DNA from: Octopus vulgaris | Lineage: Eukaryota | Direction: 5' to 3' | Assembly (NCBI GenBank): GCA_951406725.2 | Contig: OX597822.1 | Coordinates: 84,568,001-84,632,000, forward strand | DNA length: 64,000 nucleotides | In this document: piece by piece, positions 5,966 through 56,445 of the stretch | How the letters are laid out: every line of letters begins with the position of its first letter | How positions within the stretch are numbered: position 1 is the stretch's first letter | Made by a program: the position numbers and the translations under genes | The notes under the pieces: generated by a model | Told to the model about the DNA's origin: nothing | What the model saw: the letters and a program-made list of their open reading frames with translations, nothing else | The model's database searches: none

Positions 5966-6997
5966 AGCTTTAAATCCATTGTTCTTTCACCAAATGTGAG
6001 ACCTCCCACACCAGCTGCACTCATGCATCCCCAAAGCATAACACTTTCGCCGCCGTGTTTCACAGTAGGCACGGTGTATTTGTCGCTACTATCTTCACCT
6101 GGTCGTCGCCATACTCGTTTAATACCATCTCACCCAAACAAGTTGATTTTAGTCACGTCAGAAAAAAGAATTTTATTCCAAAACTCCTTCCCTTTACTCA
6201 CATAGGTTTCGACAAAAGAGGATGACGTGATTTATGTCTGGTAGTGAGGAGAAACTTCCTACGAGGAATGCGTCCATGAAGACCACACTGGTTCAAATTT
6301 CGGCGAACTGCTTGGGCGGATACACACTTTCCACCAACTGAAGACACTTCTTGGGTCAAAGATGAAGCGGTACGACGCTTGACGTCCATCACGCAACGTT
6401 GGACGTGGCGAATATCACGCGCAATTAAAACAGAAGGATGACCTGGAGGATGTTTATTGCTTAGCTGTTCAGCAGCTTTGTACTTCTGAATTACTTTGGC
6501 AACTGTGTTTACGCTAATATGTGTTCGTTTGCTAAACCATTCTTGTGCAAACTGAAAAGGATTTTCTTCAAATCTTCAGACAATTCTTTTCCTTTTGGTG
6601 CCATTTGAATCGCAATGAAGAAGATTTTCACCACGGTATACAAATCAGAATTCCTACAGATGCAACAACAATGACCGGTGCAAAAATACCAGGTGAAATA
6701 ATTCATTAGAATTGAAATTATCAGCAATATCCGAATCTAGCAAAAGGAAAAAGTGGATAAAATACTGAATATAGCAAATTTCCTTCAGGGTGTACATAAT
6801 TTTGTATCGTTTGAAAATTAATATTTCGTTCATATCTTTGAAAATATTTATTGTTTTGTGTTCCAAATTTGTATAATGTTTGCATGTATAATATATTTTA
6901 TTCAGTATAAATTTCGTTTGATTTTCTTTGATACTATCAGAGGAATGGCAATTTTACTGAAACTTTTTAGGGGTGTACATACTTCTCTGAGATACTG
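5966..6997 (-). mobile_element. Truncated, decayed Tc1-family DNA transposon
   Basis: Minus strand gives MAPKGKELSEDLKK..., VRRNLNQCGLHGRIPRRK and TKINLFG...PTVKHGGESVMLWGCM (Tc1 transposase motifs); terminus CAGT at 6997; internal repeat GGGTGTACATA at about 6788 and 6971; ends at (CA)n. Confidence 0.9.
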
Positions 6998-7023: not shown

Positions 7024-7177
7024 TAAAAGTAATATGTGACAATTATTCGGTAGTCATGATAAAACTCGGAGTTTTATCATGACTACAGAATAATTGTCAC
7101 ATATTACTTTTAAAGATAAATTCCTCTATTTACATAATATCGAGGTCTCTTTCATTCTTTTGTTGTCTTACCATTTT

Positions 7178-8584: not shown

Positions 8585-10031
8585 AACTTAGAATAACTTA
8601 GAAAGGTCTTGGCCAGTATTGGCCCAGGCCATGTCTAACTTAATAGCACCACCTGGCGAAGTCTTTCAATTCAGGATTTGGGCACCGAGGCCCATTCGAG
8701 CAGAGAGTTATTGTTTGCGGAGACATATCCGGGTGTGGGTGGTTTGTCCGGGACTGTTTGAAGGAATTTGTCCAAAGACTTCTTGAAATTTGTGTGGTCA
8801 GTTTCTGTTTTGACGTGTCCTAGTGTAATGTTGAAGAGAGCGGGTCCAATTGAGGTGAAATAATTGTGCCGTATTGTCGTTATGTGATGCGATTTAGATT
8901 TTTGTTGTGGACAGATGGCACGTGGTCCAAGCCTTGGATGTATTTTGAAGGTGATGCCAACATCATTCGGACAGTGCTGATGGAATATTTTCCACATCAT
9001 ACAGATAATGTAGCGTTCATGGCGTCGTTGGAGTGAATACAGTTTCAGCTTCTCTAGTCTACCCCAGTAGTCAAGGTCTGACATGCCATCTATCTTTTTT
9101 GTGATTGACCTTTGGGGAACTTCAATTCTCATAATATTTTGTTTTGTGTATGGAGATCACAGTGGACAGCAGTATTCAAGGTGGGGTCGGGCAAAAGTGG
9201 AGAAGAGAAGGATAATAGTGTGGGAATCTCTCGACTGGAAGGTTCTGAGAATCCAGGAGCACATTCTGCAGGCCATGTCAACTTTGCTGCTTATATGTGT
9301 AGCCCAGCTTATGTTGTTGTCCACTGTTACTCCCAAGTCTCTGATGTTGTTGGACGTCATGAGAATTTCTCCAGAAGGAAGGGAGTATGGGAGTTTCAGA
9401 GGTCCTCCCTTCCAAAGTGGATCAGTTCGAAATTGTCTTCGTTTAGCAACATGTTGTTCTTTTCCGCCCATTGGACAACAGCCAACAGTCTGACTGAAGG
9501 CTTATTCGGTCATCCACGCCATTGATGACCTTCTGGAGCTTGGAATCATCAGCGAAGGTTCTGATGTTACTGTGTTTGATGGTGTCAGTAATATCATTTA
9601 TGTAGATGATGAAGAGAAGTGGGACCAACACAGTGCCTTGTGGGACACCACTGCTGACTTTGGCTGGGCTGGATTTGACTCCTTCGACTACAACATGTTG
9701 GGTTCTGTTAGACAGGAAGCACTTGATCCACTGCAGCAGCTTTCCAGTGACACCAATATTGGACAGCTTTCTCAAAAGGATCTTATGATCAACCCTGTCA
9801 AAGGCCTTGTTGAAATCAAGGTAGATGACATCAGTGTTGGAACCCTTTCCCAAGGCTCTCAAAATGTTATCAAAATGTTGCAGTAGCTGCGTCAGGCAAT
9901 CTCTTCCATTACGGAATCCATGCTGGTTGGAGTTCAGCATATTATGACTCTCAAGGAAGTGAGTCATACGCGATCTCAGCACTCTCTCAAATACCTTAAT
10001 GATATGAGAGGTGAGTGAGATTGGACAATTA
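8585..10031 (-). mobile_element. 5'-truncated CR1/L2-group LINE (RT and C-terminus), frameshifted
   Basis: ORFs 9443-9982 (QHGFR, YLDFNKAFDRV, SGVPQGTVL, FADDSKL), 9157-9471 (RDLGV, RPHLEYC) and 8671-9132 (LYSLQRR, FKKSLD); flanked by TA-rich microsatellites. Confidence 0.93.
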
Positions 10032-12153: not shown

Positions 12154-12290
12154 ATATATATATATATATATAACCGAGATTCAATTGAATTAGTTACTTA
12201 AGTTGAAACACGAAGTCAGTCCAGTATTATCCGCACACCTCAAAGTAAGATGAATATAATCAAAATAAGCAACAGGATATCAAGTAGTGA

Positions 12291-12376
12291 TGCGGTACGA
12301 CCGTTTCAAGCGACTCCATTTAATTGAACAATGCAATCATTATATCAATTTAAATGCAATGTCATCTTCAGCTGCA
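12291..12376 (-). ncRNA. Hammerhead ribozyme motif, mirror copy
   Basis: Minus strand TGCAG-CTGAAGA-...-GAAAC-GGTC-GTA-CCGCA. Confidence 0.7.
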
Positions 12377-12835
12377 CAAATAAATAAATAAATAGAATTT
12401 TAGAAGTAAGACATATTAATATAATTTTTCTCAAATATTTTAAAAGAGTAAGAAGATGGAAGACATTCATGTTGTTGCTATTGTAGCTAAGAATAGACTA
12501 CACTTCCAAGAATTGCATGAAGTCTATTGGGGTCATAGTGTTGTAAGGGATTGTAATTCATTTCTAATTCATTTATCTCCTTCTCAACTACTAAATCTAA
12601 GACTAGAAGACTGCCTATTTTGAATAGAGGACAAGAGTGAGATAAATGAATTAGAAATGAATTACAATCCCTTACAACACTATGACCCCAATAGACTTCA
12701 TGCAATTCTTGGAAGTGTAGTCTATTCATAGCTACAATAGCGGCAACATGAATTTCTTTCATCTTCTTGCTCTGTTAAAATATTAGAGAAAAATTATATT
12801 AATGTGTCCTACTTGTTAAAAATTCTATTTATTTG

Positions 12836-12921
12836 TGCAGCTGAAGATGGCACTGCATTTAGATTGATGTAATGATTGCATTGTCCAATTCAATGGAGCC
12901 GCTTGAAACGATCGTACTGCA
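12836..12921 (+). ncRNA. Minimal type I hammerhead ribozyme motif
   Basis: TGCAG-CTGAAGA-[long stem II]-GAAAC-GATC-GTA-CTGCA; stem I pairs and stem III is palindromic. Confidence 0.8.
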
Positions 12922-12962
12922 TCACTACTTGATATCATGTTGCTTATTTTGATATATATATA

Positions 12963-19817: not shown

Positions 19818-20206
19818 TTACTAAGTCTCTCTAAAGGAGATTACGGCAGCGTTATTATTAATAGTTATCACCATACTAATATGGCAGTCTATAAATATAA
19901 GACTAAAGCTGTCGCTGATTAGCTCCAAGAGGCCATCGCCTCTAGCTAGCTATATGACACACGAACCTGCGTCCATTACAACCTTCGAACAAGTCTGACT
20001 AGCAAGGTGAAGTGGCTGACCTCCCTTGTTCGAAGGTTGTAATGGACGCAGGTTCGTGTGTCATATAGCTAGCTAGAGGCGATGGCCTCTTGGAAGTTAA
20101 TCAGCGACAGCTTTAGTCTTATATTTATAGACTGCCATATTAGTATGGCGATAACTATTAATATCCAGTAACGCTGCTGTAATCTCCTTTAGAGAGACTT
20201 AGTAAT
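19817..20206. mobile_element. Fold-back element in (TA)n: about 177-bp arms, 31-bp spacer
   Basis: 19817-19993 is the reverse complement of 20025-20206 with few mismatches. Confidence 0.88.
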
Positions 20207-20214
20207 ATATATAT

Positions 20215-20636: not shown

Positions 20637-21096
20637 GACTAAAGAAAATGGCCTAATATTGGGGCATATAAGCCCTCGACGGAATAAAAGTAGTGTTTCC
20701 GTATACATGGGATTCGAACCCACAACCCTTTGTTTTTCGTGACAGGTGTGTTACTATTACACTAACGTACCCCTGGTTTCTATCCATCAGATTTAAGAAC
20801 TATAATTAGTTCATAGTGTTGCTTTTTGTAAACAGACATCATGTACGTTTTTCTGCGATGGTTTTTGATAAGCAGTGTCGAGTTTTACAATTCTGTAAAT
20901 GATAATAATGATATTTTATAAGCTTAAAGCGTATAAGCGATCACCAACACTATGGAAGAAGCCGGGGGTACGTTGGCATAATGGTAACACATCGCGAAAA
21001 CAAAGAGCTGTGAATTCGAGTCCCATGCGTACGGAAACCTTACTTTTCTCCGTCGAGGGCTTATATGCCCCAATATTAGACTGCTTTCTTTAAGTC
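20637..21096. mobile_element. Divergent inverted pair of tRNA-headed short elements (about 20637-20790 minus, 20950-21096 plus)
   Basis: Arms are imperfect reverse complements; plus arm has A box TGGCATAATGG and B-box-like AATTCGAGTCCC. Confidence 0.75.
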
Positions 21097-23252: not shown

Positions 23253-24841
<1,589 letters not shown>

Positions 24842-25050
24842 AACTGGATCTCCTCCTATAAAGAGTTGCGGATGAACCTACCTCACGGCAGGAAATGCAT
24901 AGGAGGGCAGCAGCAACGAACTTCCTCATTCACCAAATGCCACATAACAGCGGAGGTTTCAAGTACTGAATGTGTAGCAAAGCTAACGGTGGTGCTCCAG
25001 CATGACCGTAGCTCTCGAGTTGAAACTAGTTAACGAATGTTATATATATG

Positions 25051-31916: not shown

Positions 31917-31962
<46 letters not shown>

Positions 31963-32303
31963 CACACACGTATACATACTTATGTATACATGAGAGAAAA
32001 TGGATGAATATATGAAGAAATGTGAAGAAGCACACACACACAAACACACAACCACACACACATGTATGTGTGTGTGTGTATATATATATATATGTATATA
32101 TTTATGTATACATATATTTGTATGTATGTATATGTATTTATATATACACACATACATTCACATACATCATCGTCATCATCATTTAACGTCCGTTTTCTAT
32201 GCTAGCATTGGTTGGACGGTTCGCCCGGGGTCTGGGAAGTCAGGAGGCTGCACCAGGCTCCAGTCTGATCTGGTAGTGTTTCTACATATATATATATATA
32301 TAT

Positions 32304-34092
32304 ATATTGTTATATTTCGGAATGGTCATATTGCCAGTTTAGCCAATAAAAACACACGCACTATATATTTGGTGTTATTTTGCTTCAGTGATATTTATTT
32401 TTTACATTAATCTTAATCTTATTTCGGCCAAAGTTCTTTCGTCACACTCCTGTGACCGCATCAGTGGTCCTTTGTTTTCTTCTCACTTACTTGTGTCTCT
32501 CCTTACTAACCGTCAGCCATTTTGTATTTCTATTGTATGTCTTCATTTGCGCATGCTTATATCTCTATGTGCATCTATGTTTATTTAGTGTGTGGGGGGG
32601 GATGTCTGTAATATTTGTATCTTCTGGTTATATACATTCTTGTAATTTGTATTTTGTTTTTGTTGTTGTTGCTTTTGTTCTAATTTTGTTCATGTGTTTA
32701 CATCCACCCATTATTATCATTACATATGCTTGTATGTATGTATAACAACAATATTAGTAATAATAATAATAAATCTAATCGAGAAAAAAAAAAAAAAAAG
32801 AATATACATATACATATATATATATATATACATACACATACATATACATATATATATATACATATATACACACATATATACACATATACATATACATATA
32901 TATACACATATACATACACATAGATATTCATTTCTATTTCTTTAATTACCTGTGTATTTATTATGTTTGCAGGATCCACTATTGTCATATGTTGTGGTGT
33001 GCGCTATTGCTCCATTCTAGTTTTCTATTCAGGCTAGGTTTATTTTCTATTATATGTGTAGCTTCTGTAATTTGTCTAATTGTTGCATCTGTTCTATGTG
33101 TGGACAATATCTTAATCTCTATGTTATTGATTGATCCCCCGTGTTCTTGTTCGGCGTGTTGGTACAGAATCGATTCTGTACCAACACGCCGAACAAGAAC
33201 ACGGGGGATCAATCAATAACATAGAGATTAAGATATTGTCCACACATAGAACAGATGCAACAATTAGACAAATTACAGAAGCTACACATATAATAGAAAA
33301 TAAACCTAGCCTGAATAGAAAACTAGAATGGAGCAATAGCGCACACCACAACATATGACAATAGTGGATCCTGCAAACATAATAAATACACAGGTAATTA
33401 AAGAAATAGAAATGAATATCTATGTGTATGTATATGTGTATATATATGTATATGTATATGTGTATATATGTGTGTATATATGTATATATATATATGTATA
33501 TGTATGTGTATGTATATATATATATATATTATATGTATATTCTTTTTTTTTTTTTTTTTTCTCGATTAGATTTATTATTATTATTACTAATATTGTTGTT
33601 ATACATACATACAAGCATATGTAATGATAATAATGGGTGGATGTAAACACATGAACAAAATTAGAACAAAAGCAACAACAACAAAAACAAAATACAAATT
33701 ACAAGAATGTATATAACCAGAAGATACAAATATTACAGACATCCCCCCCACACACTAAATAAACATAGACGCACATAGAGATATAAGCATGCGCAAATGA
33801 AGACATACAATAGAAATACAAAATGGCTGACGGTTAGTAAGGAGAGACACAAGTAAGTGAGAAGAAAACAAAGGACCACTGATGCGGTCACAGGAGTGTG
33901 ACGAAAGAACTTTGGCCGAAATAAGATTAAGATTAATGTAAAAAATAAATATCACTGAAGCAAAATAACACCAAATATATAGTGCGTGTGTTTTTATTGG
34001 CTAAACTGGCAATATGACCATTCCGAAATATAACAATATCTGTTTCAACACACGACTTCACATAAAAAATCTTGCACAACAAATATTTAAAC

Positions 34093-34171: not shown

Positions 34172-34589
34172 TATGTACACACATGCATACTTATGTATAC
34201 ATGAGGGAAAATGGATGAATATATGAAGAAATGTAAAGAAGTACACACACACACACATATATATATATACACACACGTATACATACTTATGTATACATGA
34301 GAGAAAATGGATGAATATATGAAGAAATGTGAAGAAGCACACACACACAAACACACAACCACACACACATGTATGTGTGTGTGTGTATATATATATATAT
34401 GTATATATTTATGTATACATATATTTGTATGTATGTATATGTATTTATATATACACACATACATTCACATACATCATCATCATCATCATTTAACGTCCGT
34501 TTTCTATGCTAGCATTGGTTGGACGGTTCGCCCGGGGTCTGGGAAGTCAGGAGGCTGCACCAGGCTCCAGTCTGATCTGGTAGTGTTTC

Positions 34590-34659
<70 letters not shown>

Positions 34660-40276: not shown

Positions 40277-40278
<2 letters not shown>

Positions 40279-40940
40279 GAGAAAGAAGCAACAAGAATGG
40301 ATTAGTTTTTAGTACAATTGTTTCATACAAAGACAGGCTTTATTAAAAGTTGCAAAAATTGCAGCAGATAAAAGTGTCCCGTACTCATCAGCTAAAATAC
40401 ATATGAGTTCTCCAAACATCTTAGTGGGTGAGGCTATACTCATGAAGTATTGGAGATAATTTCATTAAAAGCAGATTTAGGTTGTAAACAGATTTCCGAA
40501 GTTCCTTAATGATGATGCACAGTCTTATCACAGGCTTTTAAAAAAAAGCTTAGCTTTTTTTTAAAAACCTGTGATAAGACTGTGCATCATCATTAAGGAA
40601 CTTCGGAAATCTGTTTACAACCTAAATCTGCTTTTAATGAAATTATCTCCAATACTTCATGAGTATAGCCTCACCCACTAAGATGTTTGGAGAACTCATA
40701 TGTATTTTAGCTGATGAGTACGGGACACTTTTATCTGCTGCAATTTTTGCAACTTTTAATAAAGCCTGTCTTTGTATGAAACAATTGTACTAAAAACTAA
40801 TCCATTCTTGTTGCTTCTTTCTCGTGTATAATCACCCCACATTACTGTATGGTTAACACCATATAGTTTTCTGGTGCATCTAAGTTAAGTACCACATTCA
40901 AGTAAATTCATTGGAATTGACTTGAATCTTAATTGCTTTT

Positions 40941-43809: not shown

Positions 43810-44166
43810 ATAAGGATAATACCGATATTATCAAGTGGCCAGCATAGGAATAAATACCATACAAAGGTAATAATTTTTTACAACTAAAAACTAAAGGTGT
43901 CTGAGAGACACCACCATGCCGAAATAGCAGTCAAATCCCTGACTCTAAAAACCACCTTATTTAACTGATGAAGGCAGAGCTTATTTGAAGCAAAGCTAGA
44001 AATCCAGGATCTTGAATTATTCAGTTATATCTTTTTGCTTGTCTATTTTGTCCCTCTGTCTTATCTCATGGTGCGATATGAACATTTAAGGTGGCTTTTA
44101 GAGTCAGGGATTTGACTGCTATTTCGGCATGGTAGTGTCTCTCAGACTCCCTTATTTTAAGTTGTA
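43810..44166. mobile_element. Inverted-repeat element (about 80-bp arms 43879-43959 / 44087-44166) with left extension, in (TA)n
   Basis: Arms are reverse complements; HHR motif in the spacer. Confidence 0.8.
43959..44017 (+). ncRNA. Minimal type I HHR motif
   Basis: ATTTAA-CTGATGA-...AGCTT..AAGCT-A-GAAAT-CCAGG-ATC-TTGAAT; stem II junction imperfect. Confidence 0.6.
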
Positions 44167-46002: not shown

Positions 46003-46967
46003 GAATGGACCATATTTCTGAGCTGTTTTCGGTAACGTGAGATTAATATAACATTTTTTATGAAATAATTATTATCAAATGTGACAGTATAACCTTTTCT
46101 CTTGAAATATTTCTCGTAAGTCGAATACTTGCTTATAATTCGATCAACTTTATTTTCGATCAATTGTATTTCGATCAGTTGTGATAACGGACACCAAACT
46201 ATATTTAGCACGCTGAAAGCTCACCTGAAGCATTTTACCTCGAAGCTAGACTGGATTTTACCTTAAAACTAGACTCAAAGAAAACATTGGAATGAACTAA
46301 CAGGAGATGAGTGGTGAAAATTTTCAGGATATAATGTGTTGTTGTTGTTGCTGCTGTGGTTTAGTTGAATCCTTATGGAGCACGTCTGTCTTCAAGGTAC
46401 GAACAGGACAGCATCGAACGTGTCATACCATTTCTTAAGAAATCAATGTATGATTTTTGGGGATATTAGGTTGCTATTTCTGCCATGTTCAATGGCGACC
46501 TTGAGATACCATTCGTGGTTTGAGACTGTTTCATTGTGTTTGGTTTCGTCTGTTAATCTCTTGAGAATGTGAAATCCCAACTGGAAGATATGGATTGCCT
46601 GCTTCAATGTTTACTTGGTTGCCTAGCAACGTTTTAATATTCATTTAGCCCTATACATTTATTATTAGCTGTAATAATAAAAAATATGAATTATACAAAG
46701 TCTGTCTAGACGACTTCCGTGTTCAGAATAATGTCGTACACTGACCTTACATATGTATATTTTGAACACACACACACACACACGCACACACACACACACG
46801 CGCACACACACACGTATACATACATACATATATATATATATGTATATGCATATAAGCATTTATATATGCTTGCGTGTGTGTGTGTATATATTTATTCAAC
46901 CACTTGTTAGCCTTAGGATTACGGCTGTTTTGCAATCTTCATCATGTAATAATAAATTCAGAGTATA

Positions 46968-47134
46968 GTTCTATATCTAAGAGATGAGGAATTATGTACA
47001 TTATTTACATTCGACGGATATTTGTCCTTAGGAACGAGAACCTAGGTTCGAAATTTCCCCAAGACACCTGATGAAGGCTGGAGGGTATATCAGCCGTAAC
47101 GTTGTGTTAACAACAAACAAGATGAGGACAATAT

Positions 47135-47165
<31 letters not shown>

Positions 47166-47561
47166 ATTTGGTTCAAAAGCAAATAGCAAGGCCATGTAGG
47201 GGGACATGGAGTTAAGTACAGGGTGGTGTTCATGTAAAGAGTTCAGGCCACTTGAGGTCAAGGGAGGCTTTGAACAAAGCGGTCGTCGGCATCTTCACCA
47301 TCTCGTCTGGCAGCTTGTTCCACGGATCCGCAACCCGGACGGAGAACAAGCTGCCAGACGAGATGGTGAAGATGCCGACGACCGCTTTGTTCAAAGCCTC
47401 CCTTGACCTCAAGTGGCCTGAACTCTTTACATGAACACCACCCTGTACTTAACTCCATGTCCCCCTACATGGCCTTGCTATTTGCTTTTGAGCCAAATTA
47501 ACTAACTAACTAACTAACTAACTAAATATCCGTCAAACGTAAATAATGTAAATAATGAAAC
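46968..47561 (+). mobile_element. Truncated HHR-bearing element (family of 50294-50717) with an inverted tail copy at 46968-47027
   Basis: ACAC-CTGATGA-A-GGCTG-loop-CAGCC-GTAAC-GTT-GTGT at 47064-47107; interrupted by the LINE palindrome. Confidence 0.85.
47131..47529. mobile_element. Palindromic CR1-type LINE 3' end with (TAAC)n tails at both ends
   Basis: About 190-bp arms, 23-nt loop; minus strand encodes FSVRVADPWNKLPDEMVKMPTTALFKASLD. Confidence 0.9.
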
Positions 47562-47585
47562 CAAACTAGTTTTTAAATAGTAGCA

Positions 47586-48872: not shown

Positions 48873-50293
48873 ATGTGTGTGTGCGTGCGTGTGTGTGTGT
48901 GTGTGCGCGCGCGCGCGTCTGTCACTCTGCAAGTGTCTGCAGGATTTTAGCGGAGGAGCGGAAGCAGGGCTAGTGTTGCAACAACAACAGCAGCAGCAGC
49001 AGCAACAACAACAACAACAAAAGTATGTTTGATGACATTAGCGTCGGCTTTTTCAAAGAGAAGACCAGATAATATATGGAGGTGCGCACATGAAAATTTT
49101 AGCAACTGAATCATAAGAGCCAAACGCATTTAAGTTGAAGTTGATGGTTTGAAGCATAGCAAGCTGTATAAACGTCCTTGATTCTAAGCTTAACCTAACT
49201 GTAGAATCATGCAATCTCTTCAGGAAACCACGACCCACTATTTGTACAAGCCCGTGGAATCAAATTCCCACCCACCGTCATCAAATATATCAGTAAGAGA
49301 GTTAACGTTTTACTCGCAAACGCTTAACAGACATGGCCGCCGCGTTTTACTACAATGTGGCTGTACCAGGCAACATTAGAATGAGAAAAAAATATATGTT
49401 GTCACTTGTAAACAACTAAAAGCGTTCCAAATATACCAGAGAAAGGTATTTAATATGGTTTATCACTTATGTAAATTATGTAAAGCTCAATGCAGCAGGG
49501 GACTTCTTTCGTATAAACAAACATTTTCTTTATAAACCATTGGTTGTTCAAAATAAACTACACAAACCGTTCAAAGGTGAACTTCATCTGCAAGGAAAAT
49601 GTCGTGAGAAATATAAAAATATATCTTGATGATGTCACCACAGTGAAACACATCGGCCACCTGGTCACCCAGTGAAAACATCTCGAATATTCATTAAACA
49701 ATCGCCTGCACTAAGATATTCTGTCACCGTTACTTAGTAAAAGCACAGAAAATCGGAAATGCATTCGTAGAGACTGAGGTGTTGTTACTGAAACACTTTA
49801 ACGACTCAATACTTGTTAACGTTTAGAAATGGGTTTTAAAAAATTGAAAATTTCACATCTCACCCGTGGTTCTGTAGAAAAACGATAAAAATTTTGGTGT
49901 GTTATCATATGTCTAAGTTTTTTTTCTTATGAATTTTAAGAAATAGCATTAAGGCGTGTAATACAAAACAGAATTCTATGACCATATGTCAAGTCTATGA
50001 CGTCAGGTTTATGAAAACTTTATGACGTCAGATTTACGGTGTTAAATCTTTTTTAACCTGCTTATATTTCTATCAGGACAGTGATAATTACAATAGCTCA
50101 GATAAACTGGATGCATGAATATTTAGGAAAAATTTGTGATTCTTGTTGTATCTTGGGAAGGTCAGTAAGCCAATAACAATAACACACGCACTAGTTCAAG
50201 ATTACTTCTTTATTGTTAGTCAATTGGTTAAATATCTAAACAACAAACAAATCAAGCATTTGGTGAATGTACTAGTTAAACAATCAATTGGTT

Positions 50294-50717
<424 letters not shown>

Positions 50718-51129
50718 AATTGGTTGGTTGTTAGAGAAAATTCTTTGTTCGTTCTTCGCGAAATTCTCAGTGACTTGCCCTCTCGTCTCAACGTCTGCTT
50801 CCGAGTCATTCTGCATTTCGGTTTGCCACATACGCATAAAATATACTTCCAAGAATGGACCAAACAAAAGAGATTTATCCATGATAAAACAACGGACGAT
50901 TGACGTCAAATATTACAATCGAGGGGCGGTGGAGCGTGGGAGGAGTGAGGAAAGCCACAACGAAGTCACTGACAGGATGTGAACGAAGTATTCTGTATTA
51001 CAGGTCTGTTGTTATTAGATGTTCCACACTTACACCAACCGTCAATCACGAACGCGTATCGTTTGCTTGTTGCTTGGCTACCTGTGTAGGGATGAACAGC
51101 CATTGGTGCCTTCTCGTTCCCCTTACCAT

Positions 51130-53767: not shown

Positions 53768-54107
53768 GTCACCTAAATGTGGCTAATTCTTAAGGGTTGA
53801 TGCTACTGTAACTTGTAGCCCCAGGAAGACATCTACTCCAGCTGACTATTGACATACTATCTGTGCCCTATCAGATATTTGCAAAGGGACGTCATCGTTC
53901 CCATTTCCAACCTGACGTGATACACACGGACCCGAGTTTCTGGATATTGACCCGTCACCAGAGTATGAAAACCACCGGTTGGCGATGGGAAGTGATTCCC
54001 AATGTAAATATATATACTTTTTTCAGTGACGTCAGGCTGGAGATGGGAACGATGACTTCCCTTTGCCAATACTGATAGGGCACAGATAGTGTGTCAATAG
54101 CCAGCTG
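53768..54107. mobile_element. Inverted-repeat element (80-bp arms 53839-53918 / 54029-54107) with left extension
   Basis: Arms are reverse complements; extension resembles the arms of the 40972 and 19817 elements. Confidence 0.8.
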
Positions 54108-55865: not shown

Positions 55866-56445
55866 TACGACGTCTGATCAATAGATATCCAGACTGTTGC
55901 CATTGTAACGAAGCTAAAGCATGCATAGTGAAGCCGCTAGGCGCAGAAGATTGACTTTGAATTCCGTTGTGTATGTGCACTAAGTTTTAACGTTCTAACT
56001 CACTTCCGCTGTTTGCAGCAGTGCTTTGAATGAAGGTGTGTCGCCTGTGATCGTCGCATTGACCATTACAGAGAAAGTTGTCATGGTAATACCTGCCAAG
56101 TTTCTGCCAAAACTGCTTTCAGCTGACCAAAAAGACATCCGGGTTTCAGTTGCGCAAGATCTCCTTGATTGTGTCGAGAACGATGGAAACTTTTTGAAAA
56201 CTTAGCGTAGGCCTCTGAGCAGGTATCGCCAAGCTTTTGGCAAAATTTGATGCAGATTCTCTGCTCAACTTTCTCTGTCACGGTCAATGCAACGATCACA
56301 CGCTACACGCCTTCCTTCCAAGCACTGCTGTAAATAGCGGCAGTGAGCTAGAACGCTAAAAGTTAGTGCGCATGCACAGCATAGTTTCAAGGTCAATCTG
56401 TGCCAAGCGGCTTCACTCTCCGTGCTTTATTGACCAGACCGAATA
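55866..56445. mobile_element. Mariner-derived MITE with about 200-bp inverted ends
   Basis: 55866-56080 resembles the reverse complement of 56266-56445; ORF 56081-56299 TEKVEQRICIKFCQKLGDTCSEAY. Confidence 0.85.

Follow-up and report, generated by a model that had tools for sequence, protein, structure and literature searches.

A two-tailed palindromic LINE 3' end nested in a repeat of Octopus vulgaris, and its possible origin by complete cDNA snap-back

How does the 3' end of a LINE come to lie head-to-head with its own mirror image, with a tail at either end? The question is raised by a 391-bp insertion (positions 47135-47525) in the 64,000-nucleotide stretch of Octopus vulgaris DNA analysed here, hereafter the window. 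A reading of the sequence alone had recognised a mirrored LINE 3' end at 47131..47529, having (TAAC)n tails at both ends, one arm mismatch and a 23-nt loop, and each of these features is borne out. An inverted-repeat search places the arms at 47136-47320 and 47344-47528, with 23 nt between them. The LINE body, 47166-47320 in the left arm and 47344-47498 in the right, is complementary at 154 of 155 nt, the single mismatch opposing 47172 and 47492, and the longest perfect stem measures 148 bp, whereas none of 100 mononucleotide shuffles exceeded 11. The tails both point outward and by tandem-repeat count differ by one unit, with 7.8 units of TTAG, equivalent to (TAAC)n on the minus strand, at the left (47135..47165, minus) and 6.8 units of TAAC at the right (47499..47525, plus). 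When the mirror is anchored on the tail ends it continues for exactly 4 nt, ATAT on each side, and then breaks. Self-comparison of the 64-kb window reveals one copy of such a two-tailed LINE palindrome.

The original, 5'-truncated LINE copy is on the minus strand at 47166..47346, loop included, as judged from its match to a protein, P0001, and from family contigs that run on past 47346. It contains the last 38 codons of ORF2 (47346-47233), a stop codon and approximately 64 nt of 3' UTR. The mirror copy (47344..47498, plus strand) begins at GAA 47344-47346. The loop between the arms (47321..47343) forms a small internal TCCG/CGGA stem on folding. Since the reading frame crosses it and continues in the left arm, this loop is native, single-copy LINE sequence, contiguous and unbroken with that arm, and the plus strand of left arm and loop represents the first-strand cDNA. 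The turn had been attributed to a GAA/TTC microhomology, and contigs of the same family confirm it: they match through 47346 and then diverge from the window (37 loose ends in run X1 and 33 in X2), while the right arm starts at 47344. The three nucleotides GAA at 47344-47346 are consequently common to both copies, and their inverted partner, from the sequence and from DNA folding, is TTC at 47318..47320 on the plus strand. Because the family contigs continue differently past 47346, the microhomology is real and the loop native.

The nature of the mirrored element was addressed through its coding remnant. The 38-residue peptide, together with two adjoining codons, is 95% identical to P0001 (protein search; two candidates scored, one kept), a sequence of 162 amino acids whose source is labelled Octopus vulgaris. 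The 15 longer relatives of P0001 carry RVT_1 in 13 cases and additionally an Exo_endo_phos family in five, a Pfam rescan having covered two of them. Because these relatives carry reverse transcriptase and endonuclease families, the insert is, as far as its sequence can tell, the 5'-truncated 3' end of an APE-RT LINE. Its layout is that of a LINE, with a 64-nt UTR followed by a simple-repeat (TAAC)n tail and a short ATAT/AATAT target site duplication (TSD). We take the C-terminal motif of ORF2 in P0001 to be CR1-like, and the element would be placed as CR1-like by this motif and by TSD size rather than by RT phylogeny. Pfam gave zero matches in the 38-residue peptide or in P0001, and the labels of the protein-cluster atlas hold no clade name for the P0001 group. 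Thirteen recently active CR1 families are listed for O. vulgaris (PMC13282606). Another LINE fragment of this broad APE-RT type, older, frameshifted and unmirrored, lies on the minus strand at 8941-10018 and shows 33% identity to P0001 over 79 residues.

The LINE family is plainly abundant. In runs X1 and X2 the summed contig depth over the LINE arms is around 0.5-2.6 million in most bins, a depth that is not a copy number, versus a contig depth of 22.7 for the left flank in the same runs. In the raw-read runs X23 and X24, 2 and 63 reads were placed, zero of them on the LINE. Exact-pattern scans of metagenome contigs matched neither the LINE nor the host repeat into which it is inserted, and viral contigs scanned with P0001 gave zero matches.

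The most familiar source of inverted LINE sequence, twin priming, was considered and rejected, since it predicts a single tail and little overlap and the octopus insertion has two tails with the full 155-nt body duplicated. The sequence-only reading had set twin priming aside on the premise that it gives a non-overlapping inversion with one tail. That premise is too strict, overlaps being common in L1 (54 of 132 close-junction cases; PMC12016303, in its available text). Two-tailed L1 products have been published as well. Inversion, microhomology at the internal junction and a TSD are nonetheless shared with L1 twin priming as portrayed in the accessible parts of PMC12016303 and PMC4245944. There, however, one tail is present and an upstream piece is inverted, with a short overlap at most (median 12 bp), whereas in the octopus LINE the entire 3' end is duplicated.

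The best explanation, and one already put forward by the sequence-only reading, is that the cDNA snapped back and copied itself through the tail. We judge it probable, though not by a wide measure of confidence, that a truncated cDNA did so and was then joined by means of the self-complementary ATAT, all in one insertion event. Reconstructing the order of events and the polymerase from the observed anatomy and 3-nt overlap, we infer that the LINE enzyme would have nicked an older Penelope-like repeat at positions some 4-5 nt apart, at (A)ATAT, and that plus-strand cDNA would have been primed from the left end, beginning at the TAAC tail. As the family contigs show, the LINE-derived strand stops at GAA 47346, 181 nt from the tail. 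Its 3' end would have paired with the TTC 26 nt back, closing the 23-nt loop. The hairpin end would have been extended on its own cDNA, across the tail and on into the primer overhang, either by the LINE RT or by a host repair polymerase. The new end could then have annealed to the right-hand target overhang, since ATAT is its own reverse complement, leaving a normal-looking duplication.

Several observations fit such a sequence of events. The loop is short (23 nt) and native, the inverted microhomology is of 3 nt, and the arms are alike at variable sites. Five TTC sites are present in the cDNA, of which the nearest was used, and when the terminal 100 nt are folded under DNA parameters this TTC is the best partner of the terminal GAA at both 37 and 20 °C. 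The probability of GAA/TTC pairing is 0.06 at 37 °C and 0.24 at 20 °C, and at the latter temperature the pairing forms part of the minimum-energy fold. The idea that cDNA truncated at this point would be unusually prone to snap-back was dropped, since the point ranks 43rd of 147 at 37 °C and 29th of 147 at 20 °C, and this unexceptional rank counts against the snap-back reading, as does its reliance on a single locus. The unequal tails and the one arm substitution mean that snap-back also needs later slippage and mutation.

Those same small differences, one unit between the tails and one base between the arms, would be expected if both nicked ends had primed on separate LINE RNA tails, with the two resulting cDNAs joining at GAA/TTC. 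The nicked target ends would be near-equivalent because ATAT is self-complementary, and each junction does read ATAT followed by tail. Such dual priming has been proposed for L1 (PMC2837659), and the available account of an L1 reporter includes two same-site, two-RT events with TSD and polyA (PMC13526784). Since two-tailed L1 products have been published this is a live rival, albeit one that we consider unlikely. Independent cDNAs would have no reason to meet 26 nt from one end, at the nearest of five TTC sites. The arms carry the identical letter at all ten family-variable sites checked, among them 47449/47215, at which the letter in the window is the minority one. The agreement would be modest evidence for one template, given the linkage between the variable sites, and both RNAs could stem from the same source locus. 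A short-TSD LINE in culture produced zero 5' inversions according to the accessible text of PMC4245944, where an overhang of around 5 nt is also argued to be too short for second priming.

The ends of the insertion also bear on the competing readings. The left TSD copy, self-complementary ATAT at 47131..47134 (AATAT from 47130), would be the primer end of the first-strand cDNA; the right copy is ATAT at 47526..47529, after which the host sequence resumes correctly in comparison with a second host copy. This second copy, uninterrupted at 50270-50434 on the minus strand and 92% identical over aligned columns, reveals the empty site. Host AATAT had been reported on both sides of the insertion. 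ATAT does flank each side, but the longer form is less certain: at the right the first A may equal the last A of the tail and is thus ambiguous, and the left junction has one A fewer than the uninterrupted copy, probably through a slip in an A3 run. The duplication is therefore ATAT, the only unambiguous reading, and becomes AATAT when the final A of the tail is included. The missing left A is a point against snap-back, whereas the mirror's entry into host sequence for exactly the 4 nt of ATAT, with correct host sequence thereafter, supports it. TSD lengths in the L2/CR1 clade peak at 3-5 bp in the data available from PMC4245944, and the 4-5-nt duplication fits CR1/L2-type integration.

It might alternatively be supposed that the LINE had inserted conventionally and been rearranged afterwards, a single-tailed copy having broken at 47346 and its resected end having folded back and been extended through the tail, with rejoining at the far ATAT and deletion of the rest of the LINE. 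The final sequence would be identical. Microhomology-primed fold-back duplications do arise at yeast double-strand breaks without any retroelement (PMC11724301), and fold-backs are described in target DNA beside L1 insertions (PMC10191854; bioRxiv 10.1101/2024.12.14.628481), as far as the accessible parts of these sources go. Nevertheless, both the end of copying and the rejoining would have to match the old insertion boundary exactly on both sides, the yeast events are mostly of 5-34 bp (PMC11724301, available text), and the other identifiable near-perfect palindromes in the window are retroelement 3' ends rather than arbitrary DNA. We hold later repair of this kind to be quite improbable.

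The same boundary bears on whether the palindrome is an assembly or library artefact derived from a fold-back chimeric read. In a chimeric read the flank would be mirrored too, whereas the mirror at this locus ends after ATAT and gives way to the host sequence expected downstream. Moreover the arms are non-identical, older palindromes with diverged arms are present in the window, and an X1 contig matches the left flank (46890-46993) without difference. On the other side, no run contained all the sampled words, the best share being 0.69, and among the X1 and X2 contigs listed none crosses the loop junction and none spans a tail junction, the tail junctions falling outside the contig comparison, which left out 47127-47175 and 47490-47585 as repeats. 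Palindromic Penelope-like element (PLE) structures are also a source of trouble for assemblies, by the available account of PMC8557442. Weighing these points, we regard an artefact as a very remote prospect indeed. As to recurrence, no further fold-back of this LINE family is found among the 15 of 42 contig joints listed, which argues weakly against frequent recurrence.

The repeat that received the LINE has an inverted structure of its own. Its sense part, 5'-truncated, occupies 47026..47130 on the plus strand and includes a motif resembling a minimal hammerhead at approximately 47062-47108, identified from contigs and from the motif layout of PMC4209133; the remaining 3' end, recognised by comparison with the other host copy, resumes past the insertion at 47530..47556 (plus). 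Upstream, at 46965..47028 on the minus strand, its own 3' end recurs as an inverted copy, turning on the 3-nt CCT/AGG, with the overlap at 47026-47028, the partner at 47125-47127 and contig loose ends at 47026 and 47028. Host and LINE turns thus bear the same signature, a 3-nt microhomology each. The host mirror (46965-47028) extends further than the right end, an arrangement repeated in the 50270-50720 copy, so that the host displays the adjacent inverted 5'-truncated copy and one-sided 3' extension typical of PLEs. In the 50270-50720 copy a tRNA-like segment and a long (TAA)n run are situated between the 5' mirror and the hammerhead-like part.

The host had been described as an HHR element, a claim upheld only in part. 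Minimal type I hammerheads, as set out for PLEs in the accessible text of PMC4209133, have a short helix I, CUGANGA, an extra base, a long helix II and GAAA, with palindromic positions. The host layout matches this description, and helices I and II fold in both host copies. The core, on the other hand, is mutated in each, at GAAA here (47097) and at CUGANGA in the 50270-50720 copy, and Rfam yields zero matches of any kind at gathering thresholds over the window and no hammerhead match at E<=10. Seven weak Rfam matches at E<=10 were discarded as miRNA models fitting the hairpin shape, all being under gathering scores. The host is best described as a degenerate, minimal-hammerhead-like repeat and a candidate Penelope-like one, neither of its copies in the window being linked to an ORF.

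The LINE appears to be the younger of the two. Among the rows listed, the host deviates from its family majority at five sites and the LINE arm at one, which suggests that the LINE inserted after the host repeat. Divergence between arms, taken as a test of host age, is not significant (2/33 versus 1/155, p=0.08).

The unusual shape of the LINE had been ascribed tentatively to trans-mobilisation by the PLE machinery, in which a Penelope-like RT with its GIY-YIG nuclease took the LINE RNA and imposed a head-to-head architecture upon it. The window does hold other structures of the kind. When the masked window was compared with itself, 40 inverted matches emerged, of which 12 are close-armed and resolve into 10 structures, nine of these being examined. 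Besides the LINE, five are short-loop palindromes of the same tails-out shape. The small palindrome at approximately 7024-7112 (loop 1) sits beside a (TA)n run. An older one at 12258-12957 (loop 59; 302 matches, 24 mismatches) has a hammerhead-like core in each arm, its inner 89 bp perfect and its outer parts diverged. That at 19820-20207 (loop 31; 181 matches, 4 mismatches) is located between TA runs, a loose motif scan finding no hammerhead-like core in it. The largest, of about 1.7 kb at 32308-34037 (loop 0; 870 matches, 7 mismatches), carries a hammerhead-like motif in each arm, as does the near-perfect palindrome at 40278-40826 (263 matches, 1 mismatch), which adjoins a long (TA)n run. 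Hammerhead-like cores in each arm are accordingly found by the loose motif scan in three of the five, and the minimum-energy fold backs one of these three.

A peptide encoded at 33173-33355, in an arm of the 1.7-kb palindrome, has 46 relatives at E<=0.001 in a full HMMER scan, a word-based protein search with it having given zero matches. GIY-YIG is detected at E<=0.01 in six of the 12 relatives scanned, above the curated cut-off in three, and is C-terminal in them. With a C-terminal GIY-YIG as in Penelope-type ORFs, the arms of 32308-34037 clearly look, from sequence, like Penelope-type 3' ends. This palindrome has an extra extension of around 50 nt at one end, and is flanked by a 372-nt direct duplication (approximately 31936-32307 and 34243-34614; 370/372 identical) that far exceeds the usual TSD.

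These five palindromes, three hammerhead-like and one encoding a Penelope-type GIY-YIG C-terminus, are what favours a PLE origin for the LINE palindrome. Each of the five also abuts (TA)n at one end or both, though TA runs abound in this window, and ATAT is itself a TA run of minimal length. PLEs can, in addition, move host sequence in trans (PMC3846280, accessible text). Yet the LINE arms contain no pLTR sequence and stop at the LINE tail and ATAT. The cargo reported in the available parts of PMC3846280 sits between pLTRs, and cross-mobilisation between PLE types is unseen there; the octopus insert is not flanked in that way but interrupts one host 3' end with a duplication of its own. Priming occurred exactly at the LINE tail, the duplication is CR1/L2-sized, and the deviation counts given above suggest later nesting. 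The LINE cDNA strand is opposite to that of the host, so a simple Penelope template jump during host insertion was rejected as well. The proposal is thus unsupported, and we consider it a very improbable account of the locus. That a LINE with the same complete fold-back stands among five other short-loop palindromes suggests that target site or host cell, and not the PLE enzymes, may be responsible for the shape.

Further repeats were noted in the window. Four diverged inverted repeats of 70-82% identity (20653-21079, 43879-44166, 53839-54107 and 55915-56429) are possibly MITE-like elements or old fold-backs. A 349-codon open frame on the minus strand at 23806-24855, interrupted by a (TTA)n run, is presumably the C-terminal part of another non-LTR ORF, of RTE-like type. 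Another minus-strand open frame, at 6198-6575, we take to resemble the N-terminus of a Tc1/mariner transposase.

The favoured snap-back reading has precedents among known systems. cDNA snap-back is a recognised class of 5' junction in R2 insertions obtained by PRINT, in which the cDNA 3' end primes on the cDNA before the 5' junction is formed and leaves an inverted duplicate, as in the octopus LINE. The R2 examples differ in being engineered and seen as junction reads, with joins to antisense transgene sequence. They were connected to the target part-way, and the accessible text does not describe copying through the tail with two tails and a TSD, which weighs against the snap-back reading (PMC11371274). 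Head-to-head Penelope palindromes are read as self-priming (PMC3846280), and such structures have been treated as setting PLEs apart from LINEs (PMC8557442, both as available). The octopus insertion resembles the PLE structures of these two sources in having a 5'-truncated and an adjacent inverted copy with the 3' ends outward, but what it mirrors is the 3' end of an APE-RT LINE, with a microsatellite tail, a TSD of 4-5 nt and no pLTR, hammerhead or GIY-YIG.

Two-tailed L1 bridges have been found in tumour translocations (bioRxiv 10.1101/2024.08.27.596794), and these share with other two-tailed or dual-primed L1 products (PMC2837659, PMC13526784) and with the octopus LINE two outward tails and target-site hallmarks at both ends. 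The tails are polyA, however, and the products show only a 5' poly(T), are translocation bridges or are reporter joins by designed homology; the available text of these sources describes no near-perfect palindrome with a 23-nt native loop. Fold-backs at breaks (PMC11724301, PMC10191854, bioRxiv 10.1101/2024.12.14.628481) likewise combine short microhomology, a small loop, templated inversion and end-joining, but the sequence duplicated, in the parts of these sources available, is genomic DNA at the break or target and not retroelement cDNA with its tail. Searches of full-text literature, which mostly do not cover subscription papers, found no published complete, two-tailed, short-loop palindrome of CR1 type. 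While snap-back and two-tailed products are already known, the complete two-tailed CR1-like palindrome would appear to be a new form.

What, then, does the locus signify? The palindrome is a curiosity of mechanism, known from one locus and showing no hint of a function or of further copies, and the product is most likely inert debris. It bears all the same on how the second strand is made and the 5' end joined, which are the steps of LINE integration least well settled. A broader possibility, to be entertained only tentatively, is that complete fold-back of the cDNA serves in this genome as a general route to completing retro-insertions, whether of PLEs or LINEs, rather than being a Penelope quirk; the details in common would be a snap-back on about 3 nt and sealing at a self-complementary overhang such as ATAT or (TA)n. 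If transcribed, a two-tailed product would form a long RNA hairpin, each such insertion being a self-contained dsRNA substrate. By the available text of PMC5625713, near-perfect dsRNA-forming loci and hyper-editing both take an unusually large share in octopus. Were fold-back indeed general, it would mass-produce short-loop hairpins, and could thereby help to explain the dsRNA load of octopus and its A-to-I hyper-editing.
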